DNA from: a bacterium
GTDB lineage: Bacteria; Krumholzibacteriota; Krumholzibacteriia; LZORAL124-64-63
Assembly: GCA_031441465.1 (NCBI GenBank)
Contig: JANOEP010000022.1
Location: forward strand, 1 to 57,189
Direction of reading: 5' to 3'
DNA: 57,189 bases
The notes under the pieces are model-generated. The model searched no databases. It saw only the letters and a program-made list of their open reading frames with translations, and was not told where the DNA came from. The translations under genes and the position numbers were made by a program. Shown here in pieces: positions 19,736 through 47,015 of the stretch; the first letter of the stretch is position 1, and every line of letters starts with the position of its first letter.

Positions 19736-19901
19736 GGCGGCAACTCCGGGTTGAACCACGGGGGCGGGGGTCCACCGAATCTAGCATTTGAATCCCTGAT
19801 TTCAAAGGCCCGCCACGCCATCCCGGGATGTGTTAGAATCGTGGAAATTCCCCGACCCTGCCTGCGGCAGGTCGGCCCCACGACGACAGGAGATGATGGC
19901 G

Positions 19902-23260: not shown

Positions 23261-23272
23261 GAGGTGGGCACG

Positions 23273-26200: not shown

Positions 26201-27406
26201 TGGTCGTACACTTCGGTGACGCCGAACCAGGTGCGCACGACCAACTCCACGACGGCCCGCACCGTGCGCGGCGGCCGCCACACGCTAGCTCTGATGCTCG
26301 ACCGCAGCGCCACGATCGACGAGATCGACGAGAACGACAACGATTACGGCGAGCAGTACTGCTGGTCGCCCCTGGGCCTGGCGCTCGCCGCGCCCGTGGC
26401 GCGCGCGTCCCCGCCCGACCGCATCGGCGGCTGGGACGAGGTGCCTGCCGGCGTGGGGACCTGGTACAACTGCGACGGCCTGCGCCCCACCGTCGGCGGC
26501 GGTTACTGGGCCGGCGTCGCGGTGATGCCGGGCGCCGCCTCCGACGTCGACGTGCGGCTGCACCCGCAACTCGACGGCGCCCAGGACGGTTTCGCGGCCA
26601 ACCTGGCCATCTCGGGCTGGGGCGCCGGGCAGTCCGACTTCGTGCTGGTCAACTTCAACGCCACCCCCTTCGCCGCCTACGACGCGGGCGTGCTGCTGCA
26701 GAGCGGCGCCGAGGGGTACACGGCCGAAGGGGTGGCCTCGCTCTACTGCCCCGCCAACGACGATGGCACCTACGGGCCCTGGACGCTGCCCGCGAACCGG
26801 ATCCTCGACCTGCGGGAGTTCCGCCTGACGGCCGGGCTGTGGGCCTTCCGGCTGGACAACCTGTCGGGCGACGTGGACTGGGGGATCAGCCTGCATCCGG
26901 CGGATACGGCCTACCAGAAGAAGTCGACGCTCGTCACCGACGGCGCCGCGTGGCTGAATGGCGCGGGCCAGGACGAGTGGTTCACGGTGACGATCCCGAC
27001 GACGGACTACTACTGCCTGGCCGTCTGGAAGACCGGCGCCGCCGAACTCGCGAAGGCCGGCACGTACCGTCTGCGGATGCACGAAGGCGTCACCGGCGTC
27101 GACGACGGCACGCCGCCCGCGCCCAAGGCCACGGCACTGGTGTCGGTCCACCCGAACCCCTTCAACCCGCGGACGATGATCGCGTACGACCTCGCGACCA
27201 CGGGCCCGGTGAAGCTGGAGGTGTACGACCTGCGCGGCCTGCGGGTGCGGACCCTGGTGGCCGCGACGCGTCCGGCCGGGCGGCACGAGGCGGTCTGGGA
27301 TGGCCGCGACGACGCGAGTCAGGCGGTGGCGTGCGGGACGTACGTGGCGCGGCTCGAGGCGGCGCGAGGGCCGACGTCGACGCGCAAACTGGTGTTGCTG
27401 AAATAG
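23273..27406 (+). CDS. Large secreted protein: degenerate zincin-like domain, FN3-like domain, two ~368-aa repeats, FlgD-type C-terminus (1377 aa)
   Basis: AGGAGG RBS, signal peptide, FN3-like GTYYFCIRAVDRDGRWS, repeats starting DLAPY..GW (24875) and DFEPY..GW (25979), PNPFNP...KLVLLK. Confidence 0.88.
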   Translation: MRGTSLSMLTAGLLLVVFAAAAATSPLTPPAGGRTAGAAVVRPDTIRVVRAPVEVPPGRGARIVQPPAAAPSVTAKDGERDYSLTVRGRLVYQRQDGRWAGVDGIMVEIWDDDGWWGPEQLSSTYTDADGYFSRTFNYTNGADDPDIWLMIRGWSEHAYLRTEDGGYGHGYGWSTGIVENYGGTDLDWGTLTITEEREMCVLHLLSTLTRVHRWIEEHGGGDAPHVTLVWPGWDSTHPDYYDDTISICCGHQWREDTLAFLYGHHWLTHFSAHPWSDLCNGVCDGDDYCSSCYWCGENPAGAYLAGWSDWLADAFTRSLEDDYGLDALWHRDFESLDTCEGSYADPLNSEGFTAAVLRDIEDGEQDAHGVYGDWRDALALGPQEIFTVANLDRPVSSLEFLRDYAARYPARVRDLWETGKNCGLDIDEEKPGAVSGLTSSHPVGSNSPDRTVEFFWTNADDDVSGLAGYGLTLSTAAPALPAATQDIPVWNHYTSAILAPGTYYFCIRAVDRDGRWSDDYVSYGPFTLRAADPADLAPYLAAGWARELVPRATNDATSTSVTEPTSLAGNSAATYWNVRGRNSGELATSSGFHVGLAVDGAGLAGLSYGAVGAGVSYYAINRGPLTIRGGRHTFEAQHDDLGALSEPDEVDNFWAHQWVWTPLTLTSGTLVTRAAPPSRAGGWSSVVDGSTTWYNCDGLRFSSSGEWNAVVTRPLVATEDYDCRLHAASTGSGNGFAANVGYSARGVGLTDAVLVNRNEVGLHDYDVGVVQGSEGGGDYQAEHVTSTLMAVGDSTATTLPLNHMLLLREFSVTAADTGWITVTVDVAPALGPVQAAWFDEDFTVGDLQDFSLAVASNLAGRARMHMRVTGIGHHGLAVYRDQTGGAGTAALPLVIEIERTPPDFEPYEVAGWHSPMVPRPANDGTAGSVALPDTLHGNATATYYNFAFRNNSPNGWNDPGNTPRATVCLDGEPAVTWSYTSVTPNQVRTTNSTTARTVRGGRHTLALMLDRSATIDEIDENDNDYGEQYCWSPLGLALAAPVARASPPDRIGGWDEVPAGVGTWYNCDGLRPTVGGGYWAGVAVMPGAASDVDVRLHPQLDGAQDGFAANLAISGWGAGQSDFVLVNFNATPFAAYDAGVLLQSGAEGYTAEGVASLYCPANDDGTYGPWTLPANRILDLREFRLTAGLWAFRLDNLSGDVDWGISLHPADTAYQKKSTLVTDGAAWLNGAGQDEWFTVTIPTTDYYCLAVWKTGAAELAKAGTYRLRMHEGVTGVDDGTPPAPKATALVSVHPNPFNPRTMIAYDLATTGPVKLEVYDLRGLRVRTLVAATRPAGRHEAVWDGRDDASQAVACGTYVARLEAARGPTSTRKLVLLK

Positions 27407-27492: not shown

Positions 27493-27522
27493 TTGAACCG
27501 TCGCCTCCGCGCCCCATATAAT
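27493..27522 (+). promoter_or_regulatory. Sigma70-type promoter for the NRAMP-like gene
   Basis: TTGAAC-N18-TATAAT, 86 nt upstream of ATG 27609. Confidence 0.6.
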
Positions 27523-27608
27523 CCCGCGGCTCGGCGAACGTAGCCCACGGATTTCACGTCGGGATTCGATTCCCATCCCTAGGTCGTGTGCGGAGGAGGT
27601 CGCGGTCC

Positions 27609-28931
27609 ATGAAGGGTAGCGACTCCGACCACGAGTTCGACGAAGGTCCGGCGGTCGAATCCCCCCCGACGAACAGAGTGCGGCGCTTCTTCACCGATCT
27701 CGGACCCGGCCTGATCGCCGGCGCCGCCGACGACGACCCGTCGGGCATCTCGACCTATTCGGTGACCGGCGCCTCCTTCGGCTACATGCCGCTGTGGACG
27801 GCGCTCTTGTCGTTCCCGCTGATGGCCGCCGTCCAGCTGATGTGCGCGCGATTGGGACTGGTGACGGGGCGGGGGCTGGCAGGCGTCGTGCGGCTCCATT
27901 ACCCGCGGTGGGTGCTGTGGTCCGCGTGCGCGCTGCTGATCGTGGCCAACGTCTTCAATATCGGCGCCGACCTCGGCGGCATGGCCGAGGCGACCGAGAT
28001 GATGACGGGGATCAAGTCGTATTACTGGTCCCCTTTCTACGCCGTCCTGGTCGTCCTGCTGCTCTTCTATTCGTCATACCGCCGATTCGTCCGCGTGTTC
28101 AAGTGGCTGACGATGGTCCTGTTCGCCTACATCGCGGCGGCCTTCCTCGCCAAGCCGGACTGGCACGCCGTTCTGAGCGCGACCTTCAAGCCCCACGTCG
28201 AATGGTCGGGTGTGTTCCTGGCCACCTTCGTCGGCATCCTCGGCACGACCATCTCGCCCTACCTGTTCTTCTGGCAGGCGTCCCAGGAGGTCGAAGACGA
28301 GCGCGCGCAGGGGAGGGTCACGATCAAGCAGCGGGAGGGCGCGACCGCCAGGGAACTGAAAGTCGCCCGCACGGATGTCGTCACGGGGATGTTCTTTTCC
28401 AACCTCATCATGTACTTCATCATCCTGACGACGGCGGCGACGCTCCACGCAAGCGGACAGACCGACATCCAGACGGCGCGGGACGCGGCCGAGGCGCTGC
28501 GTCCCCTGGCCGGAGACGGGGCCTACCTGCTGTTCACGCTCGGGCTGATCGGCACCGGGATCCTCGCCATTCCCGTCCTCGCGGGCTCGGCCGCCTATGC
28601 GGTGGCGGAAGCGGCGTCGTGGCGAAACACCCTGCAGGACAAACCGCGACGGTCGCGCAAGTTCTATGCGTTGATCGCGGTCGCGATGCTGCTGGGCCTG
28701 GCGATGGACTTCGTGGGGTTCAACGCCGTGAAGATGCTCTTCTACGCAGCGGTGCTCAACGGCGTGCTGGCGCCGCCCCTGATCGTCCTGGTCATCCTGC
28801 TGACGAGCAGCTCGAGGGTCATGGGCGCCCGCGTCAGCTCGCGCCCGCTGCGCTGCCTCGGGTGGGCGACGGTGACGATCATGACCGTCGCCGGCATCGC
28901 CCTGATCGCGACCGTGGTGCCTTGGCACTGA
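27609..28931 (+). CDS. NRAMP/SLC11-related divalent metal transporter (440 aa)
   Basis: GGAGGAGG RBS, LGPGLIAGAADDDPSGI, ARLGLVTGRGL, GTTISPYLFFWQ, about 11 hydrophobic segments. Confidence 0.9.
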   Translation: MKGSDSDHEFDEGPAVESPPTNRVRRFFTDLGPGLIAGAADDDPSGISTYSVTGASFGYMPLWTALLSFPLMAAVQLMCARLGLVTGRGLAGVVRLHYPRWVLWSACALLIVANVFNIGADLGGMAEATEMMTGIKSYYWSPFYAVLVVLLLFYSSYRRFVRVFKWLTMVLFAYIAAAFLAKPDWHAVLSATFKPHVEWSGVFLATFVGILGTTISPYLFFWQASQEVEDERAQGRVTIKQREGATARELKVARTDVVTGMFFSNLIMYFIILTTAATLHASGQTDIQTARDAAEALRPLAGDGAYLLFTLGLIGTGILAIPVLAGSAAYAVAEAASWRNTLQDKPRRSRKFYALIAVAMLLGLAMDFVGFNAVKMLFYAAVLNGVLAPPLIVLVILLTSSSRVMGARVSSRPLRCLGWATVTIMTVAGIALIATVVPWH

Positions 28932-30392: not shown

Positions 30393-30426
30393 ACGGGCGA
30401 CCGGGCCCACTTGCACGATGATGCGA

Positions 30427-30450
30427 AATCCCGGTAACGTTACCGGGATT
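30427..30450. promoter_or_regulatory. Perfect 24-bp palindrome, LacI-type operator-like
   Basis: AATCCCGGTAACGTTACCGGGATT equals its own reverse complement and lies 60 nt upstream of the CDF gene. Confidence 0.65.
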
Positions 30451-30510
30451 CTGGTCCATCCATCAAGTCGCCGAGGTGCCGGGGAACGCATCCCGGAAGG
30501 ATGTCGCCGC

Positions 30511-31395
30511 ATGCCGCACGTGCACGCCCCCACGAACTACAACCGCGTCTTCGCCGTCGCCGTGGCGCTGAACGTCGGCTTCGTGATCGTCGAGGTCGGG
30601 TTCGGCGTGGCCGCGCACTCGCTGGCGCTGCTGGCGGACGCGGGGCACAACCTGGGCGACGTGCTCGGCCTGCTGCTGGCCTGGGGCGCCACGCGGCTGT
30701 CGCAGCGCCGTCCCTCGGAGCGCCGCACCTACGGCTGGCGCAGCTCGTCCATCCTGGCGGCGATGCTCAACGCGGTGCTGTTGCTGGTGGCGGTGGGCGG
30801 GATCGCCTGGGAGGCGCTGCAGCGCTTCGGGCGGCCGGGAGCGGTCATCGGCGAAACGGTCATCTGGGTGGCGGCCGCCGGCGTGGTGCTGAACACGGCC
30901 ACGGCGCTGCTGTTCGTGGCGGGGCGCAAGCACGACCTCAACCTGCGCGCCGCTTTCCTGCACATGGCGGCCGACGCCGCGGTGTCGGCGGGCGTGGTGG
31001 TCGCCGGGATCGTGATGCTGCGGACCGGGTGGATGTGGCTGGACCCGACCGTCAGCCTGGTCATCGCGGCGGTGATCCTGATCGGGACCTGGGGCCTGCT
31101 GCGCGAGTCGCTCGACCTGGCCCTGGCGGCGGTGCCGTCGGGGATCGACCCCGAGGCCGTCGCGGCCTACCTGCGGGACCTGCCGGGCGTCGAGGCCGTC
31201 CACGACCTGCACATCTGGGGCATGAGCACGACCGAGTCCGCGCTCACCGCCCACCTCGTCAAACCCGATCCCCGCGACGACGACGAACTCCTGGAACGGG
31301 CCGTCCGCGAGCTGCACGACCGCTTCGGCATCGGCCACACGACGCTGCAGTGGGAGCGGGGCGGCGACCCCGCTCCCTGCGCCGGATCCTGCTAA
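30511..31395 (+). CDS. Cation diffusion facilitator (CzcD/ZitB-like Zn/Co/Cd exporter, 294 aa)
   Basis: SLALLADAGHNLGD, RTYGWRR, NLRAAFLHMAAD, VHDLHIW, HTTLQ. Confidence 0.95.
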   Translation: MPHVHAPTNYNRVFAVAVALNVGFVIVEVGFGVAAHSLALLADAGHNLGDVLGLLLAWGATRLSQRRPSERRTYGWRSSSILAAMLNAVLLLVAVGGIAWEALQRFGRPGAVIGETVIWVAAAGVVLNTATALLFVAGRKHDLNLRAAFLHMAADAAVSAGVVVAGIVMLRTGWMWLDPTVSLVIAAVILIGTWGLLRESLDLALAAVPSGIDPEAVAAYLRDLPGVEAVHDLHIWGMSTTESALTAHLVKPDPRDDDELLERAVRELHDRFGIGHTTLQWERGGDPAPCAGSC

Positions 31396-32116: not shown

Positions 32117-33556
32117 ATGAAGATGAGGTGCGGGCTGCTGATCGGCCTGGTTACGATCCTATGGGCAGCGGGCGCGGCAGCCGAATCGGTGGCCGGCCTG
32201 CCGGTGCACGTCCAGAAACTCGGCGAGGGGGTCGTCCGGGTCTGGGTGGGCGATTTCATCTCGTCGACCGCGACGGTGGCCTTCGCCACGCAGAAGGGCA
32301 TCCTGGTCGTGGACACGACCGGCAACCCGACGATCGACCGCGGGCTGCGCCGCATCATCGCGCGCGAGCTCGGCCGCGACGACTTCACGACGCTGGTCAA
32401 CACCCACGAGCACGGCGACCACACCGGCGGCAACGCCGTGTACGCCGACTGCGAGATCGTCGGCCACGAGCTGGTCGGCGCAGGCATGGCCGCGGCGCTG
32501 GCCGACCGCGCCGAGATCCTCGAGTGGTACGCGACCGGCATCCCCGAGACCGAGGCGCGGCTCGCGGCATTGCCGGCCGACGACCCCGGCCTGGCGAGCC
32601 TGAAGGAGGACCTGGCCCTGGACCGCCTGAGCCGCGACGCCCTGCTGACCGGCGAGGCGCCGACGCCGCCCACGCGCACCTTCGCCGACCGCCTGACGCT
32701 CGACATGGGCGACACCACCTTCGAGCTGTACTACACCGGCGGCATGCACACCGCGAGCGACATCGCTGTCTTCGTGCCGCGGCACGGCATCCTGATGACC
32801 GGCGACACCATGTCCGACCGCTGGCTGACCGACACGCCGGGCTGCCTGGCCTCGTTCGTCGCGCGCCCGGGCGTGCGCCACGACTTCCCGCGGCTGCTGA
32901 AGAACTGGGAACACCTGGCGGGGCAGAAGGACCGCATCCGGCTGCTGCTGACCGGACACTGGAACGGCGAGCTGTCGTACGACGGATTCGCGTCTCGGGT
33001 CGGCTACGTGCGGACGCTGTGGGACGGGGTGCGGGCGGAGGCCGCGCGGGGCGCGACCCTCGAGTCGCTGTTCACGACCTACGCACTCGAAACGCGCTTC
33101 CCCGAACTGGCCGAGAGCCCCGGCTTCAGCCGCAACAACAACGCCATGACCCTGATGGAACTGTGGAGCGTGACGACGGGGCAGACGTCGGCGGCGGAGC
33201 AGCTCTACGCGCTGATCGACGAGGGGGCGTCGCCGGAGGCCGTCCGCGAGGTCGTGAGCGGCCGCGACGCGCAGCCCGCGCGCTACTACTACTTCGAGAC
33301 CCAGATCAACGGCTACGGCTACCGCTTTCTGCAGGCGAACCGCGCCCCGCAGGCGGTGGCGCTGTTCCGGGCCTACGCGGAGATCTTCCCCGAGTCGTGG
33401 AACGCCTACGACAGCCTGGGCGAGGCGCTGCTGGCCGCGGGCGACCGCGACGGCGCGATCGCGATGTACGAGAAGTCGGTGGCGCTCAACCCCGCGAACT
33501 CCAACGGCACCGACGCACTGTCGCGGATCAGGGGCGGGGCGGCGCCGGCGCAGTAG
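32117..33556 (+). CDS. Secreted MBL-fold hydrolase with C-terminal TPR repeats (479 aa)
   Basis: Signal peptide, VVDT, NTHEHGDHTGGN, HT..D, TGD, TGH; TPR segment FPESWNAYDSLGEA...YEKSVALNP. Confidence 0.9.
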   Translation: MKMRCGLLIGLVTILWAAGAAAESVAGLPVHVQKLGEGVVRVWVGDFISSTATVAFATQKGILVVDTTGNPTIDRGLRRIIARELGRDDFTTLVNTHEHGDHTGGNAVYADCEIVGHELVGAGMAAALADRAEILEWYATGIPETEARLAALPADDPGLASLKEDLALDRLSRDALLTGEAPTPPTRTFADRLTLDMGDTTFELYYTGGMHTASDIAVFVPRHGILMTGDTMSDRWLTDTPGCLASFVARPGVRHDFPRLLKNWEHLAGQKDRIRLLLTGHWNGELSYDGFASRVGYVRTLWDGVRAEAARGATLESLFTTYALETRFPELAESPGFSRNNNAMTLMELWSVTTGQTSAAEQLYALIDEGASPEAVREVVSGRDAQPARYYYFETQINGYGYRFLQANRAPQAVALFRAYAEIFPESWNAYDSLGEALLAAGDRDGAIAMYEKSVALNPANSNGTDALSRIRGGAAPAQ

Positions 33557-33587
33557 AATTTACCGACATGAGGCTGAAAGCGAAGCA

Positions 33588-33611
33588 GGGCCCCGGCGCG
33601 CGACGGGGCCC
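33588..33611. terminator. Hairpin between convergent genes
   Basis: GGGCCCCG-N8-CGGGGCCC followed by CTCTCTT. Confidence 0.5.
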
Positions 33612-33646
33612 CTCTCTTGATTCCGATGCCTGCGAACCGTGAGCCG

Positions 33647-35854
33647 TCAGGGGTTTGGTCCATCGTGGCACTGGTAGCACGAGACGCCGGTCCAGCCTCC
33701 CAGGTATTGCTGCCCGTGGCAGTCCCTGCAGGATTGGGTCCCGTTGTCCTCGGCGTAGTTCCCGTGCTGCGAACTGTTCGACCAGTTGGACGGGTGCCCG
33801 CCCGGCCCGTCGTGGCAGTCGAAGCAGGAGACGCCGGAACTGCCTCCGTTGAAATCGGCGCCGTGGCAAGCCGTGCAGGACGCGGCGCTCGAGGTGCGCA
33901 CTGACGCGCCGTGCTGGGCGGGCTCGGCCCAACCGGCGGGGTGGCCCCCGTTGGGTCCGTCGTGGCACGAATAGCAGGAGACCCCGCTCCAGCCGCCTCG
34001 GTAGTTGGCGCCGTGGCAATCGGTGCAGGATGCCGAACCGTTGATCTCGACCTCCCCGCCGTGCAGTGCGGGACTGGCCCAGCCCGTCGCATGCCCGCCT
34101 GGCCCGTCGTGGCACGAGAAACACGAGACGCCGCTGGTGCCTCCCGTGTAATCGGCGCCGTGGCACGAGGTGCAGGACGCGGCGCTGCTGGTGCGCACGG
34201 TCGCGCCGTGCTGGGCGGGATTTGCCCAGCCGACAGGGTGGGCTCCGTTCGGCCCGTCGTGGCACGAGTAGCAGGAGACCCCGCTCCAGCCGCCGCGGTA
34301 GTCGGCGCCGTGGCAAGCCGTGCAGGACGTGGAGCCGTTCGCCCCGACCTCCGAGCCGTGCTGCGTGGGGCTGGCCCAGCCCGTCGCATGCCCGCCTGGC
34401 CCGTCGTGGCACGTGAAGCACGAGACGCCGCTGGTGCCTCCCGTGTAATCGGCGCCGTGACACGAAGTGCAAGAGGTGGCGTTGTTCGTGCGCACGGTCG
34501 CGCCGTGCTGGGCGGGATCGGCCCAGCCGACGGGATGCGCGCCGTTCGGACCATCGTGGCAAGAGAGACAGGAGACCGCGCTCCAGCCGCCCAGGAAATC
34601 GGCGCCGTGGCAGCCCGTGCAGGAAGTCGGACCGTTTGTCGCGACCTCGGCCCCGTGTTGGTCGGGACTGGCCCAGCCCGCCGCATGGCCCCCTGGGCCG
34701 TCGTGGCACGAGAAGCACGAGACGGCGCTGGTTCCGCCCGCGTAGTCGGCGCCGTGGCATGAGGTGCAGGACGCGGCGCTGTTCGTGCGCACCGTCGCGC
34801 CGTGCAGGGCGGGATCGGCCCAGCCGACCGGGTGTGCGCCGTTCGGACCGCCGTCGTGGCAAGTGTAGCAGGAGACCGCGCTCCAGCCACCGAGGTAATC
34901 GGCGCCGTGGCAGGTCGTGCAGGACGTGGAGCCGTTCGCTTCGACCTCAGTGCCGTGCTGCGTGGGGTTGGCCCAGCCCGTCGCATGGCCGCCCGGGCCG
35001 TCGTGGCAGGTGTAGCACGAGACGCCGCTGGTGCCGCCTGCGTAATCGGCGCCGTGGCACGAGGTGCAGGATGCGGCGCTGTTCGTGCGCACGATCGCGC
35101 CGTGCTGGGCGGGGTCGGCCCAGCCGGCGGGGTGGGCGCCGTTGGGGCCGTCGTGGCAGGTAAAGCAGGAGATTCCGCTCCAGCCGCCGAGGTAGTCGGC
35201 GCCGTGACAGGCCGCACAGGACGCGGCGCCGTTCACGCCGGCGGCGGCGCCGTGCTGGGCGGGCAACGCCCATCCTTCCGGATGGCCGCCGGGTCCGTCG
35301 TGGCAGGTGAAACAGGAGATACCGCTGGTGCCGCCCGCATAGTCGGCGCCGTGGCAAGTCGTGCACGAGGTGGCGCTGCCGGTGCGTACCGTCGCGCCGT
35401 GCTGGGCGGGGTCGGCCCAGCCGGCGGGGTGCGGCCCGGTCGGCCCGTCGTGGCACGCGTAACAGGAGATCGCGCTCCAGCCACCGCGGTAGTCGGCGCC
35501 GTGGCAGATCGCGCAGGACGCGGCGCCGTCGTCGCCGACGACGGCGCCGTGCTGGACGGGCGCCGCCCAGTTTTCGGGGTGGCCGCCCGGACCGTCGTGG
35601 CAATCCCAGCAGCCGGGCGCACCGCTCTTGCCTTGAAGGTCCGTCGCGTGGCAGGAGCGGCAGGTGGCGAGACCGCGCTCCTTGACGAGTTCACCGTGGA
35701 AGTCGGGGGAATCGGTCCGGCTCCAGGTCTCCGGATGCGAGCCGAGTCCGGGCTCCGAGGCTTGATCGGCACAACCGGCGACGAGGGACAGGCCGAGGCC
35801 CGCGAACAACAGGAACAAGAGGAGACGCGCGGCCGGTCGCATGTCGATCGTCAT
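33647..35854 (-). CDS. 28-heme c-type cytochrome lipoprotein made of 14 tandem diheme repeats (735 aa)
   Basis: GGAGG RBS, lipobox LVAGC, 28 CxxCH motifs counted. The repeat unit is H-x3-W-x5-HG-x11-CxxCH-x12-CxxCH. Confidence 0.93.
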   Translation of the reverse strand: MTIDMRPAARLLLFLLFAGLGLSLVAGCADQASEPGLGSHPETWSRTDSPDFHGELVKERGLATCRSCHATDLQGKSGAPGCWDCHDGPGGHPENWAAPVQHGAVVGDDGAASCAICHGADYRGGWSAISCYACHDGPTGPHPAGWADPAQHGATVRTGSATSCTTCHGADYAGGTSGISCFTCHDGPGGHPEGWALPAQHGAAAGVNGAASCAACHGADYLGGWSGISCFTCHDGPNGAHPAGWADPAQHGAIVRTNSAASCTSCHGADYAGGTSGVSCYTCHDGPGGHATGWANPTQHGTEVEANGSTSCTTCHGADYLGGWSAVSCYTCHDGGPNGAHPVGWADPALHGATVRTNSAASCTSCHGADYAGGTSAVSCFSCHDGPGGHAAGWASPDQHGAEVATNGPTSCTGCHGADFLGGWSAVSCLSCHDGPNGAHPVGWADPAQHGATVRTNNATSCTSCHGADYTGGTSGVSCFTCHDGPGGHATGWASPTQHGSEVGANGSTSCTACHGADYRGGWSGVSCYSCHDGPNGAHPVGWANPAQHGATVRTSSAASCTSCHGADYTGGTSGVSCFSCHDGPGGHATGWASPALHGGEVEINGSASCTDCHGANYRGGWSGVSCYSCHDGPNGGHPAGWAEPAQHGASVRTSSAASCTACHGADFNGGSSGVSCFDCHDGPGGHPSNWSNSSQHGNYAEDNGTQSCRDCHGQQYLGGWTGVSCYQCHDGPNP

Positions 35855-35859
35855 GTTGC

Positions 35860-36729
35860 TCAACCTCCGTGACACGCCGCGCAAGTCGGGGCGCTGCGCC
35901 CGTCGTCGTGGCAGGCGATGCAGCTCTCGAGGTCGAAGACACCGTCCACGGCGTGGCGGCCGCCGTCCGGCAGCCGCACCCAGCCCGCGCGTGAGTGGCT
36001 GTCGGGAAGCACGTTCTGGGCGACGTGGCACGAGCTGCAGAATTCCGGCTCGCCGTGGCAGGTCGTGCATTCCTGCTCGCGGCCGCGGGCCCGCACGGCG
36101 TGCCCGAACGCGAAGTCCAGGGGGTGGACGCGCGGGCGCAGGTTGTCGCCGGCGTGGCACTGCTGGCAGGTGCCCTGCGTGTGGCAGGTGGCGCAGCGGG
36201 CCTCGTTCTCCCGGGCCCGGGCGCCGTGGCGGCCGGTCCAGAGGGCGTCGTGCGTGTCGGGCCTCAGCTCCATGCCCTCGGCGTGGCAGAGGCGGCAGTC
36301 GCCGTAGTCTTCGGCCGTGGCGTGGCAGACGCGGCAGTCGGGCTTGGACGGCAGGCGCGGCGCGGTGGTGGGTTCGCCGTGGCACGACGTGCACGCCATG
36401 CCCTGCGCCGTGTGGGCGGCGTGCGAGAACTTCTGCGCCCGGTATTCGTCGTACGACGTTTCACCGGCCGCATCGACGTTCGTGTGGCACCGCGCGCAGC
36501 CGTTCTCGTCTTCGACATCGTGACAGTCCGCGCAGACGTCCATGCCCGGGCGCAGGGAGTCGCCCGCTCCGCGCGAGTCCGTCGCGGCCGCGTGGCAGGT
36601 CGTGCACTCGATGCCGTCGGCGTAGTGGGTCACGTGCGGCATGATGATCCGATCGGGATCCGCGGCGGCGACAGCTGCAACGACGCACACGGTCAACCCG
36701 GTGAAGAGCAGGGTGAGCGGCGTCTTCAT
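35860..36729 (-). CDS. Periplasmic dodecaheme cytochrome c (c3/c7-like, 289 aa)
   Basis: Signal peptide, 12 CxxCH motifs counted, c3/c7-type HxxH motifs (MPHVTH, FSHAAH). Confidence 0.93.
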   Translation of the reverse strand: MKTPLTLLFTGLTVCVVAAVAAADPDRIIMPHVTHYADGIECTTCHAAATDSRGAGDSLRPGMDVCADCHDVEDENGCARCHTNVDAAGETSYDEYRAQKFSHAAHTAQGMACTSCHGEPTTAPRLPSKPDCRVCHATAEDYGDCRLCHAEGMELRPDTHDALWTGRHGARARENEARCATCHTQGTCQQCHAGDNLRPRVHPLDFAFGHAVRARGREQECTTCHGEPEFCSSCHVAQNVLPDSHSRAGWVRLPDGGRHAVDGVFDLESCIACHDDGRSAPTCAACHGG

Positions 36730-38066
36730 CGTGACCAGCCTCCCCGGTCGAGGCCGGTTCTTCCCGTGCCGCGCGCCAGAGCCAGGTCCATGCCCAGCAG
36801 GACGCGGATGTCCCGGGTGTAGAGCGGCGTGTCGAGGCTCTGCACCTCGGCCGTGAAGTCCAGGCCCGGGCGGAGCCGGGCGCGGGCCCGCGCCGCGAAG
36901 GTGGTCAGCTCGCGCTCGCCGGAGACGGGGCCGTCCGAGATCAGCGCGTACACGAGGTGCGAGGCCTCGCCCTCGAGCCGCAGCCGGCGGCAGGCCTGCC
37001 AGGCCAACTCCCCGTAGAGGCTGTTCTCCTCGCCCGTGTCGCCGAGACGGACCGACCAGCCGACGCGCGCGGCCGGCAGCAGCAGCGCGAACCCGACGCG
37101 CGACGAGGCGCGCGTGTCGACGAAGGAGCCGACGTACTCCAGCTCGCCGCCGAAGCGCGAGCGGTGCTCCCAGGCCAGCGCGCCGCGCGCCAGGCGGATC
37201 CGCTTCACTTCGGTGAAGCGGGCGAACCACGAGGCGGCGTCGAGGGAGGGATGGCGGTCCACGTACTGGAGGCTCAGCGCGGGCCGCGACGGCGCCGGCT
37301 GCCAGCGCGCCTGCGCCTCGAGGCGCGACCAGCGTTCGCCTTCGAGATCGTACGCCGCGCGGGCGAGCGCGTCGACGTGCGGCACCGCCGTCGTCGCGTA
37401 CTCGCAGCCCACCGGGCGCTCGGCGACCACGCCGCGGCGCTCGCGGTACGCGCCCGAGAAGGCGAGGCGTTGACCGCCGCCCGGCGAGAAGACCAGGCGG
37501 CCGCCGGCCGCCGCGTCGAGGTCGAAATCGCCCAGCCTCGTGGCGTTGCCCCAGGGCGACCGCGCGCCGCCCCAGGCCGAGACCTCGACGGCGCGCCCGC
37601 GGCCCCAGGCAAGCTCGGCGCCGTCGAGGGTGAGGGAGGCCACGCCGCTCTGCAGGAACTGGCGACCCACGCGGGCGCGCACCTGCGAGCCGAGCCGCGC
37701 CTCGAGGTACCCGCTGGAAAGGCGGGACCTGTCGCAGCCCGGCCACGCGTCGACCGGCGAGATCGCGTAGCGACCGGACACTCGAACCGAAAGCCGGCCG
37801 CCGGCCAGCCCCGAGGCGCCGCCGGCGAAATGCTGGTAGAAGCGGAAGTGGTCCGTGTCCGCGCCGGCCGCATCCTCGGTCTGGTAGGCGTAGCCCGTAC
37901 TGCGCAGCGACAGGTTCCAGGAAGGGGGCGGGACGGAGGGCAGCAGATCGCCGGCCCGGACCTGGCCGGTCCCGGCCGCCAGAGCGAAGGCCAGCGCGAA
38001 TACCGGCGCGAGCACGCGGGACAGTCGGCGGCAAGAGGCACGGAAGCGGTCGCAGCGGCATACCAT
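36726..38066 (-). CDS. Putative outer-membrane beta-barrel porin of a porin-cytochrome cluster (about 446 aa; start uncertain)
   Basis: Signal-like hydrophobic stretch, alternating amphipathic strands (RVGRQFL, LDGAEL, ARAAYDL), no CxxCH, ATGA-coupled to the dodecaheme gene. Confidence 0.75.
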   Translation of the reverse strand: MVCRCDRFRASCRRLSRVLAPVFALAFALAAGTGQVRAGDLLPSVPPPSWNLSLRSTGYAYQTEDAAGADTDHFRFYQHFAGGASGLAGGRLSVRVSGRYAISPVDAWPGCDRSRLSSGYLEARLGSQVRARVGRQFLQSGVASLTLDGAELAWGRGRAVEVSAWGGARSPWGNATRLGDFDLDAAAGGRLVFSPGGGQRLAFSGAYRERRGVVAERPVGCEYATTAVPHVDALARAAYDLEGERWSRLEAQARWQPAPSRPALSLQYVDRHPSLDAASWFARFTEVKRIRLARGALAWEHRSRFGGELEYVGSFVDTRASSRVGFALLLPAARVGWSVRLGDTGEENSLYGELAWQACRRLRLEGEASHLVYALISDGPVSGERELTTFAARARARLRPGLDFTAEVQSLDTPLYTRDIRVLLGMDLALARGTGRTGLDRGGWSR

Positions 38067-38392
38067 GACGAACGTCGACCTCGCCGATCGGTAGGGGACG
38101 GCAATCCGGATGTTCGCAGTCCGCGGCAGGGCCTCGAGGGGTTGCCGTCGACTCGCGACCCGGTACCGGTTGATTATCGGGTTTCGCAGATGCTGAAGCC
38201 ATACTATTTTGATATGTCAAAATCGATCATGAATCTCATTGGCGACAAGCCACGGCGAGCTGGTGCGCAGGCACGCCGCCCGCGAAGTCCTTCAATCGAG
38301 ATTCGACAGGCTCCGGCGATATTCAGTATTGGCCCGATAACTCCTGAATTGTATTTATATATATCCATATATGCCAAGATTTTTATCTCATC

Positions 38393-38408
38393 GGTGACCA
38401 TGATCACA
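38393..38408. promoter_or_regulatory. CRP-family-like box in an AT-rich divergent intergenic region
   Basis: GGTGA-CCATGA-TCACA matches TGTGA-N6-TCACA at 9 of 10 positions. Confidence 0.4.
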
Positions 38409-38502
38409 GACAGTGCATGGTCGATATCAGAGTATGTTTCTATGCTTTGAGGCGGCGACCCTGTAGGCGCCCGACGACCATCATCGAGACCGGGAGGCCG
38501 AT

Positions 38503-41121
38503 GTGCGCAAATCCCCCATCCTGACGACGTGCCTGTTCCTGCTCGCCGCCGCGGCAGCCGGAGCCCAGACTTTCCCGATCCTCGAGCAGGGCCTGCTGCC
38601 CGGCGACACCGCAGTGTCGGCGGCCACGGGCAGCCAGCAGGACCACGACGCCGCCCGGGGCGGCGACATGACCCTGGTCGTCTGGTCGGACTTCCGCGGG
38701 CAGGAGGTCGGCGGCGGGACGGAGCAGAGCGGCGGCGACGTCTTCGGGATCCGCCTCGACGCGCAGGGCGCGCCGCTCGACGCCTCGCCGATCCTGATCG
38801 CCGGCGGCATGGGCCTGCAGGACCGCCCGTTCATCGCCTGGAACGGGGAGGCCTGGCTGGTCGTGTTCCGCTCCCAGGATCCGGTGGGCGGCTACTTCGA
38901 GTACCGCACGCGCGCGGTGCGCGTCTCGGCGCAGGGCCAGGTGCTCGACGCGACGCCCATCACCTTCCCGGCGACACAGTTCGAGCCCAACGACATCGGC
39001 CTGAATGTGGCCGGGCAGGGCGGGCAGTGGCTCGTCACCCGCTGCATCTACCACAACGACGGCTACGGCACCTTCCTGGCCGGCCAGCGCATCAACACCG
39101 CCGGCCAGCTGCTGGACCCCACGCCGATCGTGATCATGGACTGGGTGTACGGACCCACCAAGGCGGTCGTCGCCGACGGCGAGTACCTGGTCATCGGGCC
39201 CGACTGGTCCGACGGCGGCACGCTCAAGGCGCGGCGCGTGGGGCTGGACGCGCAGCCGTTCGGCGCCTCGTTCACCGTGCCGGGCATGACCATCGCCGGC
39301 AGCGGCAGCGAGTACTACGTCTCGTGGATCGTGGACTTCGGGACCCTGCTCGGCTCGCGCATGACCCTCGACGGCACGCTGCTGACGCCCGCGGGCACGG
39401 TGCTCGTGTCGGGCTTCACGCAGTACGACCATTCCACGCTGGCCCACGACGGCGCCCAGTGGTGGCTGGAGTGGGGCGTCTCGGACATCCTGCGCACCGT
39501 GCGCATCGACGCCGCCGGCAACGTGCTGGACCCGAACGGTGGCGTGCTGCTGCCGATCGTCATCGGCGGCAACGTCAACACGGCCTACGGACCGCTCATG
39601 ACCGGCCGGGTCGGCGGCGGCGTGCACCTGTTCTGGTACGACCTGCGCGTCGCGCTGGGCTACGACACCAACGTCTTCAAGCTGCCCATCAGCGCGGGCA
39701 ACGTGCCGGGCGCCGAGAGCAGCGTCTCGACCGGCACGCGCAGCCAGCGCACGCCCGACTTCGCGCAGGGGCCCGGCGCCCAGACGGCGCTGGTCTTCGT
39801 CAGCGAGGCGGCCCACGACGACCGCGTGCTGCTGCACTTCCTGGACGCGGACGGGCAGCCCGCCGCCGCCGAGCCGATCGAGGTCGCGGCGGCCGCGAGC
39901 ATCGGCCAGACCGGGATCGCCTGGAACGGCGCGCTGTACCTGGTGACCTGGGACGACGGCTCGCTCGGGGTGCGGGCGCGCCGGCTGAACGCCGACGGCT
40001 CCTTCGTCGATCCCGCGCCGTTCAACGTCATGCCGGGGTTCGACCCCGACGTCGAGGCCCTGGGCGAGGACTTCCTGATCGCCACGGCGCGCTACGGCAC
40101 CTACCCGCAGTACATCAGCGCCTGGATGCGGATCGTCGACGGGCCGACCGGCGGCTTCCAGAACGCCGCCACGGTCATCGGCGGCGGCTACGTGAACGTG
40201 GGCCCGCGCGTGCGCCAGGACGGGTCGCGCTGGATCGTGACCTACCACAGCCACTGGACGCACGACAGCAGCCAATCGGACGCGGTCTACAACTTCGTGA
40301 ACCCGAACGGCACCTTCACGGCGGCGTCCAACCCCGCGACGACCTCAGGCGGGTCCGGCACGCCGGACGTGGCCTTCTCAGGCCAGAAGTACCTGTTCGT
40401 GTGGCGGAACAACTCGCTGGCCAACGCCAACAACTACATCGTGGGCCGGATCATGAACGCCGACGGCACGTTCCCCGGCGGCAACTTCACGATCGCCGAG
40501 GCGCCGGGCCGCCAGCTGCGGCCGGTCGTGGGCTGGGACGGCGCGACCTTCGTGGTCGCCTGGGACGACCAGCGCCACCAGGACTCGTTCTTCGACGCGC
40601 GGACGGACGTCTACGGCGCGCGGGTCAGCGAGGCCGGCGCGGTGCTCGACCCGGCGGGCTTCCCGATCCAGGTCGGCGCCCAGGGCGACGCCACCGCCGC
40701 GATCCTCAGCCGCAGCGACGGCGTCAGCCTGGTGGCCTGCGCCCGGTTCTCGATGGCCGCGCCGTACGATTCGTACCGCATCGGCGTCACGAAGCTGGGC
40801 ACCAGCACGCTGGCGACCGGCGTCGGGCCGCTGGCGCGGCCGCTGCTGCGCGTCAACGCGCCCAACCCGTTCAACCCCCGCACGGCGTTCAGCTTCACGC
40901 TGGACCGCGACGCGCAGGTGTCGCTGGCCGTGTTCGACCTGCGCGGGCACCGCGTGCGCACGATCGTGGAGCAGCGGCTGGCCGCGGGCAGCTACGACGG
41001 GGTGTACGCGTGGGACGGGCGCGACGAGCAGGGGAGGGCGGCCACGAGCGGGACCTACCTGTACCGGATGACGACCGATGGGGGCTACAGCGAATCCCGC
41101 CGGATGACGTTGCTCAGATGA
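38503..41121 (+). CDS. Secreted beta-repeat (propeller-like) protein with FlgD-type C-terminus (872 aa)
   Basis: GGGAGG RBS, GTG start, signal peptide, recurring P.(I/V)AW.G..(Y/F)LV.W and GxxLDP blades, PNPFNP...RMTLLR. Confidence 0.88.
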   Translation: MRKSPILTTCLFLLAAAAAGAQTFPILEQGLLPGDTAVSAATGSQQDHDAARGGDMTLVVWSDFRGQEVGGGTEQSGGDVFGIRLDAQGAPLDASPILIAGGMGLQDRPFIAWNGEAWLVVFRSQDPVGGYFEYRTRAVRVSAQGQVLDATPITFPATQFEPNDIGLNVAGQGGQWLVTRCIYHNDGYGTFLAGQRINTAGQLLDPTPIVIMDWVYGPTKAVVADGEYLVIGPDWSDGGTLKARRVGLDAQPFGASFTVPGMTIAGSGSEYYVSWIVDFGTLLGSRMTLDGTLLTPAGTVLVSGFTQYDHSTLAHDGAQWWLEWGVSDILRTVRIDAAGNVLDPNGGVLLPIVIGGNVNTAYGPLMTGRVGGGVHLFWYDLRVALGYDTNVFKLPISAGNVPGAESSVSTGTRSQRTPDFAQGPGAQTALVFVSEAAHDDRVLLHFLDADGQPAAAEPIEVAAAASIGQTGIAWNGALYLVTWDDGSLGVRARRLNADGSFVDPAPFNVMPGFDPDVEALGEDFLIATARYGTYPQYISAWMRIVDGPTGGFQNAATVIGGGYVNVGPRVRQDGSRWIVTYHSHWTHDSSQSDAVYNFVNPNGTFTAASNPATTSGGSGTPDVAFSGQKYLFVWRNNSLANANNYIVGRIMNADGTFPGGNFTIAEAPGRQLRPVVGWDGATFVVAWDDQRHQDSFFDARTDVYGARVSEAGAVLDPAGFPIQVGAQGDATAAILSRSDGVSLVACARFSMAAPYDSYRIGVTKLGTSTLATGVGPLARPLLRVNAPNPFNPRTAFSFTLDRDAQVSLAVFDLRGHRVRTIVEQRLAAGSYDGVYAWDGRDEQGRAATSGTYLYRMTTDGGYSESRRMTLLR

Positions 41122-41685: not shown

Positions 41686-43755
41686 ATGTTCCGCCGCCTC
41701 GTCGTCTCCGCCGCCCAGCTGCTGTTGGCCGCCGGTTTGGTGCTCGCGCCCGCCGCCGCCTCCGCCTGGGAGATGCTCTCCTACGTGAACGATCCCGAGG
41801 ACCTGGCGATCGACGAATCGCTGGACATCACGGGCGCGAGCGTGGAGCAGCAGGGCGGCCGGCTGCTGTTCACCATCGCGCTGCGCGGGGACGTGCCCGC
41901 GAGCCTGCCCGGGCCGGACGACAGCCAGACCTACCTGTGGTTCCTGGACACGGACGAGGACCCGTCCACCGGGCAGAACCACGGCGCGGTCGGCAGCGAG
42001 TTCAACGTGCGGGCGGTGATCGGGGAGACCTACGGCGGCGGCTGGGTGGACGTGACCAGCGGGATGCCGGGCGGGGGCACGGGCACCGTCACGGTCGAGG
42101 GGTCGGTCGTCTTCATCAGCGTCTGGATGGACCAGATCGGCAACGCGGCCAGCTTCAACTGGCGCTGCGCGACGTTCAAGGTCATCGGCGGGAACTACGA
42201 GCAGGGGAACTTCGACACCGCGGTCGGCAACGCCGTGATGCTGGCGTACACGGCACCCGCGAGCGTCTCGGTGACGACGCCCATCCTCGAGCTGTGCCCC
42301 TCGGGGCCGGCCACCGGGCAGCTGCAGGTTGAGCTCCGCGACGCCGACGGCGCGATCCTGCCCAACGAGGAGCACGTCATCACCTACCACAGCACCAACG
42401 ATGCCGTCGCCACGGTCGACGCCGACGGGCTGGTCACCGCGATCGTCCCGCCCACCTACCACTGGCAGACGCCGTACATCGAGGTCTGGGCCGATGGCGT
42501 GATGGCGGACAACTCCGCGGTGATCCGCGTGAACGCGTTCGACGTCGGGGTTGTCCACGAGACGTTCCCGGCTGAGCACGTGTCGTTCTACCTGCCGGCG
42601 ATGATCGAGGGGGTGGACCTCGGGGCGCTGACTGAGGACTTCGAGGTGGTGCATGCCACCGATGCCGCCTACGCGGCCCAGGAGGCGGGGCTCGGCACCG
42701 TGCCGACCAATGGCGGCACCGAGTGGTTCGTCCTGGACGTGGCCACCGACCCCGTGACGTCGGTCTGCGGGGCGAGCGGCAATCCGATCCGGCTGGGCTG
42801 GACCTGGGGCGAGCCGCAGCACAACACCTGCTACATCATCAACGATCCGGCGAACCGCCGGCCGCAGTGGTTCGTGCTGTGGCACGAGATGGGCCACAAC
42901 TTCACGTGCGCCTGCAACGCGTTCAACATGTACCTGTGGACGCCGTCGCCGACGCACAACTCGACGTATTGCGAGGGGCTGGCCTCGCTGGCGGCGATGT
43001 GGTCGTGGCGGGTGGCCATGGATTATCCGAGCGATCTGGGGATGCCGGCGCACTCCGACATCGACAACCACTACTGCGACTACTGGGGTAACTTCCAGAA
43101 CTCGCTGACCGACTACCGCGCCGGGGGGCGCGACTACGGCACGATCGACGCCAACGTGCTCGACGGGATCCTGATGGAGATGTGGGGCACGTACGGGATC
43201 AAGTGCTGGTACGACCTGTTCAGCACGTTCCTGCCGGCGCAGGAGCCGATCCCGATCGCGATCGACACGATCGAGAAGCAGGCGACCTGGTTCGTGGCGG
43301 CGATGAGCGCTTCGGCGGGGGAGGATCTGCGGGAGCTGTTCAGGAACGATTACGGGTTCCCGATCGACGAGGGGGCGTGGCCGGAGATCATGGGCGTGGT
43401 GCAGGATCGGGTGGATGCGCGGGACTTCTATTCGGTGGGGGTTGGGGAGACGCCGCCGGTGGTGGTGGCGGGGGATCGGTTGCTGGCGAATGTGCCTAAT
43501 CCGTTCAATCCCAGTACTTCGGTTGGGTTCGTGCTTGGGCGCGATGCTCGGGTGACCCTGGGGGTTTACGATGTGCGGGGTAGGCTCGTGCGGGGGTTGC
43601 TGGATGCCGAGATGGAGGCCGGGGAGTATCGGGATGCCTGCACTTGGGACGGACGGGATGATCGGGGGCGGGCGGTGACCAGCGGGACCTACTTCCTGCG
43701 GATGGTTACTGATGAGAGATTCAAGTGGGCAAGGAAAGTAATGTTGGTGCGTTGA
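41686..43755 (+). CDS. Secreted gluzincin (M60-like) metalloprotease with Ig-like (Big_2) and FlgD-type domains (689 aa)
   Basis: GGAGG RBS, signal peptide, STNDAVATVDADGLVTA (Big_2), LWHEMGHNF plus downstream YCEG, PNPFNP...KVMLVR. Confidence 0.85.
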   Translation: MFRRLVVSAAQLLLAAGLVLAPAAASAWEMLSYVNDPEDLAIDESLDITGASVEQQGGRLLFTIALRGDVPASLPGPDDSQTYLWFLDTDEDPSTGQNHGAVGSEFNVRAVIGETYGGGWVDVTSGMPGGGTGTVTVEGSVVFISVWMDQIGNAASFNWRCATFKVIGGNYEQGNFDTAVGNAVMLAYTAPASVSVTTPILELCPSGPATGQLQVELRDADGAILPNEEHVITYHSTNDAVATVDADGLVTAIVPPTYHWQTPYIEVWADGVMADNSAVIRVNAFDVGVVHETFPAEHVSFYLPAMIEGVDLGALTEDFEVVHATDAAYAAQEAGLGTVPTNGGTEWFVLDVATDPVTSVCGASGNPIRLGWTWGEPQHNTCYIINDPANRRPQWFVLWHEMGHNFTCACNAFNMYLWTPSPTHNSTYCEGLASLAAMWSWRVAMDYPSDLGMPAHSDIDNHYCDYWGNFQNSLTDYRAGGRDYGTIDANVLDGILMEMWGTYGIKCWYDLFSTFLPAQEPIPIAIDTIEKQATWFVAAMSASAGEDLRELFRNDYGFPIDEGAWPEIMGVVQDRVDARDFYSVGVGETPPVVVAGDRLLANVPNPFNPSTSVGFVLGRDARVTLGVYDVRGRLVRGLLDAEMEAGEYRDACTWDGRDDRGRAVTSGTYFLRMVTDERFKWARKVMLVR

Positions 43756-46430: not shown

Positions 46431-46871
46431 TCACACGTTCTCCGTGTCGGCGACTCGATCGCGCCCACCGGCGGCTCGCGCCTCCGCCAAGACATCCTGG
46501 TACGTCGACGCGAACCGGGATGACAAGTAGCCCGTTGCGGTGAGTTGTGACGAGGCCTCGGACAGCAGCGAGCACACCAGCGTGTTCAGCGAGACACCCT
46601 CGACCTGCGCTTGCCAGACGAGCCGGGCGTGCAGGGTGCGGGGCAGGCGGACCCGGAACTGTCCGCTGTGGGCGGCGAGTTCGAACCGCGCCGGTGGCGC
46701 CTCGCCCGACTCTGCCATGTCCTCGAGAACCAGGTCGATCGCGACCTTCAGTTCGTGGACGGCATCCTCTTCGGTGTCGGCCAGGGCCGTGAGGTGTCCC
46801 AGTTCCGGGCAGGTGGCGACGTATTGGCGGTCTTCGCTGCTCCAGGCGACGAACTGGCTGTAGCCGGGCAT
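46431..46871 (-). CDS. hicB: HicB-family antitoxin (146 aa)
   Basis: GGAGG RBS, WSSEDRQYVATCPEL...ADTEEDA, RHH domain HSGQFRVRLPRTLHARL..QAQVEGVSLNTL. Confidence 0.9.
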   Translation of the reverse strand: MPGYSQFVAWSSEDRQYVATCPELGHLTALADTEEDAVHELKVAIDLVLEDMAESGEAPPARFELAAHSGQFRVRLPRTLHARLVWQAQVEGVSLNTLVCSLLSEASSQLTATGYLSSRFASTYQDVLAEARAAGGRDRVADTENV

Positions 46872-46883
46872 AGGGGTTCCTCC

Positions 46884-47015
46884 GCTAGTCTTCGATCAGC
46901 TTGTCATACCGTGAGTTGCAGATTCGCACAACCATGGCACCGCCTGTGGTTCCAGTATGTAAAGTGCTTCTTGTGAAGCGGCCAGGCCGGATTCGCTGGG
47001 CGAACTTTTCGAGAG
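46884..47015 (-). pseudogene. Possible decayed hicA toxin remnant
   Basis: No intact ORF upstream of hicB. Fragments in different frames (LEK...RF, KHFTYW...NLQ, KLIED*) resemble HicA. Confidence 0.35.

Follow-up and report, generated by a model that had tools for sequence, protein, structure and literature searches.

The DNA analysed here is a stretch of 57,189 nucleotides from contig JANOEP010000022.1 (assembly GCA_031441465.1) of a Krumholzibacteria-type bacterium, called the window below, and it has been found in freshwater-sediment metagenomes. Three minus-strand genes of the window, A, B and C, lie head to tail, contain 40 CxxCH heme motifs altogether, and probably encode a porin-cytochrome conduit that carries electrons across the outer membrane; we place the probability of this reading at roughly two in three. 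Gene A (36726–38066) encodes a 446-residue protein with a signal peptide, no CxxCH motif, and a predicted plug-less 22-strand barrel. Gene B (35860–36729) encodes a putative periplasmic 12-heme c-type cytochrome of 289 residues with 12 CxxCH motifs, and gene C (33647–35854) a 735-residue lipobox lipoprotein with 28 CxxCH motifs organized into 14 diheme units. In 5000 shuffles of each protein sequence, CxxCH motifs averaged 0.16 for B and 0.33 for C and never exceeded 3 and 4, respectively.

The stop codon of A (TGA) and the start codon of B (ATG) overlap by 4 nt (ATGA), a gap of 5 nt separates the stop codon of B from the start of C, and the Shine-Dalgarno sequence GGAGG is located 9–11 nt ahead of the start codons of B and C. 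The three genes most likely form one translationally coupled operon. A preliminary description of the sequence had reported three co-oriented, coupled genes with this overlap, this gap, and 12 and 28 CxxCH motifs, all of which was confirmed from the coordinates. The gene structure, motifs, barrel, insertion of B into A, and co-occurrence of the genes were computed or predicted.

In the proposed mechanism, A would form a 22-strand barrel with an open lumen of the size found in TonB-dependent receptors, and residues ~134–289 of B, which carry seven hemes, would fill this lumen as an insulated heme wire. The N-terminal half of B, which has five hemes and resembles ActA, would project into the periplasm, where its electron donors may be periplasmic or inner-membrane quinol-oxidising cytochromes with genes at other sites in the genome. 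C would be anchored by its lipid to the outer membrane, most likely on the cell surface, and would extend the heme chain by seven c3/c7-like tetraheme modules joined in a row, each heme of which could be ligated by two histidines. The acceptors that C may supply with electrons would be large or insoluble, for example Fe(III)/Mn(IV) minerals, humics, or partner cells. Relatives differ in how many repeats they have, and presumably therefore in how far the wire reaches. In this scheme, we infer the attachment of the hemes, the orientation of C, the partners, the direction of flow, and the substrates.

The predicted barrel and its putative cytochrome insert

The AlphaFold2 model of A, calculated with 48 homologs, has a mean predicted local distance difference test score (pLDDT) of 85.6 and a predicted template modelling score (pTM) of 0.76. 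In this model, a signal-peptide helix precedes 22 beta strands located within residues 49–432, which agrees with the earlier proposal that the heme-free 446-residue protein is a beta barrel. The top structural matches found with an exhaustive aligner are the 22-strand barrels of TonB-dependent receptors with Z-scores of about 18, including FyuA (Z 18.6, root-mean-square deviation 5.0, 331 aligned residues), Cir (Z 18.2), and BtuB (Z 18.0), together with the FimD usher (Z 18.1). Foldseek identified porins and usher barrels with E-values down to 7e-11. Every match to a TonB-dependent receptor aligns the barrel part of the receptor only; A is therefore predicted to be a plug-less barrel with a lumen sized for a plug of ~150 residues. 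When the usual topology with both termini in the periplasm is assumed, the outward loops of A are short, and the longest of them (residues 272–289) is the most conserved stretch of the family. The C-terminus of A (36726–36770) has a conserved tail beyond the last strand, formed by G433, G438, L439, G442, G443, and W444 followed by x-R. The C-terminal end is not aromatic, which is unusual for an outer-membrane beta-signal, and parts of the tail are inside the predicted interface with B.

The sequence of A has no match above the cut-off in Pfam (the one weak match, to DUF7460, scored 13 bits against 27), no match in NCBIfam, no match in the Protein Data Bank (PDB) even at E≤10, and no match to MtrB_PioB (PF11854) at E≤1. 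MtrB is absent among the best 50 structures listed for A by Foldseek and by the exhaustive aligner, which leaves a structural similarity possible. In the ESM Atlas, A matched unnamed clusters only, which occur most often in Zixibacteria and Myxococcota.

B carries a Sec-type signal peptide that lacks a canonical lipobox. All 12 of its CxxCH motifs and ten further histidines are invariant among 46 sequences. The Pfam families detected in B are Cytochrome_C7 and c3, and a match to PF22113 (39 bits, cut-off 30) was read as generic multiheme similarity. Residues 25–150, which contain five hemes, resemble the pentaheme subunit (ActA) of Alternative Complex III both in structure (Z 5.5 and 5.2 over 117–118 residues with 26–27% identity) and in sequence (phmmer E-values of 3e-4 to 6e-4). 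Weak matches connect B to HmcA, to a GSU1996 fragment, and to NrfA-type nitrite reductase chains (8bcx_A, E-value 1.2e-4 over 57 residues), and sub-threshold NCBIfam matches to cytochromes of Ext operons, such as ExtS (E-value 0.024). The PDB sequence search found no close solved relative of B and, at E≤1, no MtrA chain; fold searches with a model of B of moderate quality also returned no MtrA and nothing above Z 5.5. In line with the expectation of the preliminary description, none of the three proteins is a close ortholog of a component of a solved or curated complex.

The complex of A and B was predicted from the two polypeptide chains, without hemes and without C. The median interaction prediction score from aligned errors (ipSAE) of three runs was 0.80 (0.80, 0.52, and 0.86), whereas the best of three controls scored 0.00; 116 of 157 solved complexes attained the score mark, as did two of 215 mismatched pairs. 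The runs shared at least 75% of their contacts, and the pLDDT of the partner was at least 73. Approximately 300 contacts between A and B are predicted. On the side of A, they involve alternate, lumen-facing residues on nearly all strands, loop 273–288, and the C-terminal tail. The interface of B is restricted to residues 134–289, which include seven of the 12 heme motifs. The seven-heme C-terminal half of B is thus predicted to sit in the lumen of A, leaving the N-terminal five-heme arm free, and the prediction supports binding of the two proteins. A has 72 positions with a conservation of 90% or more, and 31 of them belong to the interface, which comprises 118 of the 405 residues (odds ratio 2.1, a descriptive value since the positions are not independent). 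The porin-cytochrome layout suggested in the preliminary description is supported by this predicted threading of B into A.

The repeat lipoprotein and the distribution of the cassette

The N-terminus of C is formed by a signal peptide and the lipobox L-V-A-G-C, with Cys28 as the acylated residue. The remainder of the protein is composed of 14 diheme units, each 49 or 50 residues long, which belong to two alternating types and thus form seven tetraheme super-repeats. The spacing of the heme motifs is 17 and 32–34 residues throughout. C contains 56 histidines, 28 proximal and 28 spare, which is two per CxxCH motif and fits bis-histidine ligation of every heme. The first heme pair starts ~35 residues after the acylated cysteine, and the segment between them is a conserved half-repeat (H40-P41, W44, F52-H53-G54), whereas the last unit is truncated and lacks this half-repeat tail. 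This arrangement fits the donation of distal heme ligands by the preceding unit. C contains 26 residues per heme, and glycine, alanine, serine, and threonine together account for 48% of its residues. Pfam matches to Cytochrome_C7 and Cytochrom_c3_2 cover ten stretches each, with additional matches to Paired_CXXCH_1; no match to the MtrC/MtrF domain (PF22113) was found in C with Pfam.

At the DNA level, C contains a tandem repeat array (33798..35561, minus strand) with a period of 297 nt, 5.9 copies, and 82% matches; the array can also be read with a period of 147 nt. The count of 28 hemes rests on this array. Short-read contigs from two runs of the same study, one of them perhaps made from the source sample, match the array exactly in short, tiled pieces, and no listed contig bridges it. 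A 6344-nt contig from run X3, a groundwater metagenome, represents a ~93%-identical relative and joins across 894 nt of the array (34598–35493), which corresponds to three periods or 12 heme motifs. The gap is either a difference in copy number or a collapse of the repeat in short-read assembly. The same contig also lacks 9 nt at position 35827.

The 90%-clustered protein collection contains 93 homologs of A, all without a protein name, and the named records belong to Krumholzibacteria and Eisenbacteria; B has 966 homologs. A profile of A matched 694 representative clusters at E≤1e-3, 286 of them at E≤1e-10. Twenty distant clusters were looked up, and the organism was given for four of them: Fidelibacterota, KSB1 (twice), and Ignavibacteria, all annotated as 'hypothetical'. 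We fetched 17 loci from species-representative genomes for the analysis of synteny. A and B are adjacent in all 17, and a homolog of C follows B in all 15 loci that could be evaluated, the contigs of the other two ending inside B. The Nramp, CDF, and MBL genes that flank the operon in the window are kept in none of the 17 loci. Since A, B, and C travel together and the flanking genes do not, the cassette is, by its sequence context, an autonomous module; the synteny check called for in the preliminary description agrees with a porin-cytochrome conduit. Among 208 genomes of the phylum, A is present in 44, B in 46, and both in 43. In the high-quality genomes, A and B were each detected in 30 of 125, so that the module is patchily distributed and occurs in about a quarter of them.

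The number of hemes in C varies among relatives. Intact, lipobox-bearing orthologs (loci L006–L009, L012, and L014–L017) contain 10, 12, 14, 16, 18, 22, or 26 hemes; of these loci, L007, L009, and L015 are located on contigs 0.26–1.0 Mb long. The best listed matches of C are 42–50% identical to it, and the ortholog from L006 is 78% identical. In the most distant genomes of the phylum, only residues ~97–289 of B were matched, adjoining a distant barrel, which is consistent with the inserted part of B being the conserved core. In three genomes from a distant family of the phylum (G012, G013, and G014), the B-like frames hold one in-frame TAG, and only the C-terminal two thirds of B were matched; the TAG could reflect two genes, a frameshift, or another cause.

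Sediments and aquifers commonly harbour Krumholzibacteria and their neighbours. The preliminary description had placed the sequence, as probable, in a lineage of the Fibrobacteres-Chlorobi-Bacteroidetes (FCB) group, which is supported, as Krumholzibacteria are counted in the FCB superphylum in the accessible part of one study (PMC9769843). As far as the accessible text of another report goes, the link of Krumholzibacteria to iron cycling was made through generic marker matches only (PMC7914226). A search of the literature on Krumholzibacteria, Eisenbacteria, and Latescibacteria, with supplementary tables outside its scope, found no account of the cassette. Marker sets based on Shewanella and Geobacter would probably miss it, given the lack of Pfam and NCBIfam matches. 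With its three defined genes, the cassette gives these uncultured lineages a molecular route to mineral respiration or electron uptake that is concrete and can be tested, and the repeat-built 28-heme lipoprotein provides a compact natural model for the evolution of heme-wire length.

Judged by its sequences, A-B-C seems to add a new sequence family to the known porin-cytochrome wires. A more far-reaching and tentative proposal, which we regard as possible rather than probable, is that A-B-C is the founding example of a widespread, unnamed porin-cytochrome family of FCB type with an anchored, modular heme 'nanowire', the length of which would be tuned from 10 to 28 hemes by tandem gain and loss of diheme units. 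Such a family would include Krumholzibacteria and Eisenbacteria, as well as the distant barrels of Ignavibacteria, KSB1, and Fidelibacterota. If the proposal is true, the dynamics of tandem repeats set how far from the cell surface electrons reach.

Direction of electron flow and genomic surroundings

Several observations weigh against an outward-directed A-B-C conduit. The operon encodes no inner-membrane partner. The score of the A-B complex is a confidence of the model, obtained without hemes, and may partly reflect a learned MtrAB-like architecture, a caveat that stands although the sequences gave no sign of similarity to MtrA or MtrB. When folded alone, B is predicted well up to residue ~190 and poorly thereafter, with a pLDDT of 45–65 at residues 190–289, which lie within the part said to be inserted. 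The patchy occurrence of the cassette marks it as an accessory trait. The acidic N-terminus of C is not unusual, as 31 of 107 crude lipoprotein candidates in the genome have at least two aspartates or glutamates at positions +2 to +7. Finally, the host encodes two heme-copper oxidases, which makes inward flow, and thus metal oxidation, equally possible mechanically.

The same conduit may therefore run inward, drawing on extracellular Fe(II), reduced minerals, humics, or partner cells as electron donors and supplying the oxidases or nitrate/nitrite reductases. MtoAB and PioAB are thought to carry electrons in this direction, and heme wires are reversible in principle. Besides the two oxidases, the host has a NapC/NirT-type protein beside a multiheme frame, and, on the basis of FeGenie, both oxidation and reduction of iron were proposed for metagenome-assembled genomes of Krumholzibacteria (PMC7914226, accessible part). 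Nevertheless, we consider inward flow unlikely. Iron-oxidising conduits of the MtoAB/PioAB type are described, in the available portion of the source, as having no large surface cytochrome (PMC5566968), whereas a surface wire that is long and varies in length is suited to touching solids, which are mostly acceptors. Furthermore, no marker of Fe(II) oxidation adjoins the operon.

The +2 residue of C is alanine, which we take, from the E. coli rule, to signal outer-membrane sorting only. C may thus be periplasmic, in which case A and B would form a two-component conduit of the MtoAB/PioAB kind with the outer heme exposed at the mouth of the barrel, and C would bridge the periplasm as a tethered heme rod or electron store. 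A string of 28 hemes could span the periplasm, as may the large repetitive PCC3 cytochromes (PMC5566968, accessible part). This arrangement is quite improbable: heme numbers of 10 to 26 in the orthologs and 28 here are hard to square with a periplasm of fixed width, a predicted five-heme arm of B already extends into the periplasm, and the lipoprotein is external in all characterised three-part conduits covered by the available text of the Geobacter study (PMC6148476). As a marker of surface exposure, we considered a Bacteroidota-type lipoprotein export signal in the acidic N-terminus of C (CADQASEP here, CAER.DD-like in orthologs), and rejected it; the N-terminus does not match the C-X-K-(D/E)2 register given in the accessible part of the source (PMC5080379).

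It is very improbable that the operon forms no wire, with A acting as a diffusion or uptake channel and B and C reducing a soluble sulfur, selenium, or nitrogen compound in the periplasm: multiheme cytochromes include enzymes, B weakly matches NrfA-type chains, and some Ext clusters of Geobacter are reported to serve selenite or tellurite reduction (PMC6148476, accessible part), but no CxxCK or other catalytic-heme motif and no catalytic-domain match (Pfam, NCBIfam) was found, the histidine count of C fits electron-transfer hemes that are all bis-histidine ligated, the lumen of A is predicted to be filled by B and not open, and the operon encodes no molybdo-, FeS-, or rhodanese-type partner.

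The host genome has a size of 3.49 Mb, is 96.8% complete, and has four or more CxxCH motifs in each of 27 open frames. A System II locus for cytochrome c maturation is present, which answers the question about maturation genes raised in the preliminary description. Two candidate suppliers of electrons to conduits were identified in the genome. NapC/NirT homologs may provide an inner-membrane entry point. On contig C10 (92834–96228, locus L026), a 4Fe-4S protein with a twin-arginine translocation (TAT) signal, an NrfD-type membrane protein, and a 13-heme cytochrome are encoded in a row, and this module is a possible quinol-to-periplasm entry for conduits.

The host holds several further barrel or cytochrome clusters. 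On contig C66 (84170–86987; L025:370–3187), a 10-heme cytochrome (Paired_CXXCH_1, NrfB-like) is followed by a 632-residue protein with a sub-threshold match to MtrB_PioB (17.7 bits, cut-off 23), and their sequences indicate that they may be a divergent pair of the MtoAB/PioAB type. The search of the whole genome for MtrB_PioB gave sub-threshold matches only, all on contig C66. The same contig (88200–91308; L025:4400–7508) encodes a 9-heme cytochrome followed directly by a 659-residue protein with four rhodanese domains, a pairing that recalls the rhodanese lipoprotein of Geobacter extHIJKL, as described in the accessible part of the source (PMC6148476). A cluster on contig C19 (9768–16691, L023) encodes a SurA-like peptidyl-prolyl isomerase, a 1033-residue cytochrome with 42 CxxCH motifs, an NHL-repeat protein, and a 6-heme cytochrome; a few kb away, at C19:3768–4361, lies a CcsA-like gene. 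On contig C11 (71343–75957, L024), frames for 20-heme and 13-heme cytochromes are followed by a 540-residue signal-peptide protein without a family.

The window has a G+C content of ~70%. The operon is flanked by two plus-strand genes, a divergent one at 38503–41121 and a convergent one at 32117–33556. A promoter-like site (TTGGCA, 18 nt, TACAAT; 38348..38377, minus strand) is located in an AT-rich leader ~280 nt upstream of A. It is the only one found in region 33300–38700, where shuffled sequences gave a mean of 0.1, and it is a consensus match only. A terminator-like GC-rich hairpin with a T-rich tail (33587..33612, minus strand) lies 35 nt past the stop codon of C; its stem is formed by nine pairs, eight of them GC. 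Two terminator-like sites were found in the region against a shuffle mean of 1.2, so that the hairpin is weak evidence on its own. Rfam had no match in 33300–38700.

An Nramp metal importer (27522–28931) and a CDF cation-efflux protein (30418–31395) are encoded a few kb upstream of the operon. We rejected these metal transporters as functional context, as they accompany the cassette in none of the related loci. Four large secreted proteins encoded in the window (19800–22562, 23261–27406, 38503–41121, and 41686–43755) end with an FlgD Ig-like C-terminal domain; one of them has lamin-tail domains and another a CARDB domain. Two of these four proteins are the sole flanking genes common to the window and its closest relative, L006. 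A HicB-family antitoxin gene is located on the minus strand at 46431–46895.

Comparison with known conduits

The layout of A-B-C corresponds to the three-element operational definition of an outer-membrane electron conduit that Jimenez Otero et al. (2018) used for Geobacter (PMC6148476, accessible part), with the orientation of C inferred. A is predicted to be the integral outer-membrane protein with transmembrane beta-sheets. B, with its signal peptide without a lipobox and its 12 invariant CxxCH motifs, represents the periplasmic multiheme cytochrome. C, with the LVAGC lipobox, 28 CxxCH motifs, and a start 5 nt after B, represents the lipoprotein cytochrome.

A-B-C shares its design principle, a multiheme cytochrome threaded through a barrel, with MtrCAB, MtoAB, and PioAB. 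In the structure of MtrCAB, the N-terminal part of the threaded cytochrome is periplasmic and the lipoprotein cytochrome is outside. The components of A-B-C are distinct: A has no match to PF11854 and 22 strands, as opposed to 28 motifs predicted for MtrB in the available portion of Shi et al. (PMC4245776), B has 12 and not 10 hemes as MtrA, and C has no MtrC/MtrF domain. On the evidence of sequence comparison, A-B-C is not an Mtr homolog.

PCC3 clusters (He et al. 2017) also combine a porin with periplasmic and 'extracellular' multiheme cytochromes, and their cytochromes resemble C in having many hemes, low-complexity sequences rich in glycine, alanine, serine, and threonine, internal repeats, and a low residue-to-heme ratio. 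The A-B-C operon differs from them, as far as the accessible part of that study describes PCC3 (PMC5566968), in having neither a five-helix inner-membrane protein nor a periplasmic cytochrome with a median of 21 hemes; the five-helix protein, with its two WX3HX13H motifs, was found neither in the operon nor among the scanned neighbours. PCC3 was reported in Proteobacteria (PMC5566968).

The tandem small heme domains of C, arranged as a linear wire, are similar to those of c7/c3 polymers such as the dodecaheme GSU1996 from Geobacter and HmcA from Desulfovibrio. Such polymers have been described as 'nanowire'-like. Unlike C, GSU1996 and HmcA are soluble periplasmic proteins that have neither a lipid anchor nor a barrel gene beside their own.

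The closest correspondence in numbers is to the porin-cytochrome systems of Geobacter. The likeness to OmbB-OmaB-OmcB and Ext is one of heme counts, strands, and gene order. OmbB-OmaB-OmcB from Geobacter sulfurreducens is also composed of a barrel, a periplasmic multiheme cytochrome, and a lipoprotein cytochrome, encoded in the same order (ombB-omaB-omcB). In the partly accessible source, OmaB has eight and OmcB 12 hemes, whereas B has 12 and C 28; furthermore, unlike OmcB, C consists of tandem repeats, and its length varies. The periplasmic cytochromes ExtA and ExtG have 12 hemes each and are paired with an outer-membrane protein of 18–21 strands and one or more lipoprotein cytochromes (PMC6148476, accessible part). 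B has the same number of hemes, and in ExtABCD and ExtEFG, too, the surface lipoprotein varies while the periplasmic part is conserved. The Ext lipoproteins described there contain 5 or 12 hemes and are non-orthologous replacements, whereas in A-B-C one repeat family expands and contracts. Pcc porins are reported to have 18–22 trans-outer-membrane motifs and their periplasmic cytochromes 5–14 hemes (Shi et al. 2014, PMC4245776, accessible part), and A, with 22 strands, and B, with 12 hemes, lie inside both ranges.

The preliminary description had proposed an analogous conduit built from different parts. Its observation that the heme counts are not Mtr-like stands, but the 'different parts' hold against Mtr only; relative to Geobacter, the 12 hemes of B equal those of ExtA and ExtG, the 22 strands of A lie inside the range of the Pcc porins, and the gene order is that of ombB-omaB-omcB. 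It had also known of no characterised conduit from the FCB group. This is retained with the qualification that Geobacter-like porin-cytochrome clusters, uncharacterised according to the accessible texts, had already been predicted in the FCB members Ignavibacterium and Melioribacter (PMC4245776, PMC7399161). By analogy of heme counts, strands, and gene order, the numbers of A-B-C fit the Geobacter systems better than Mtr.

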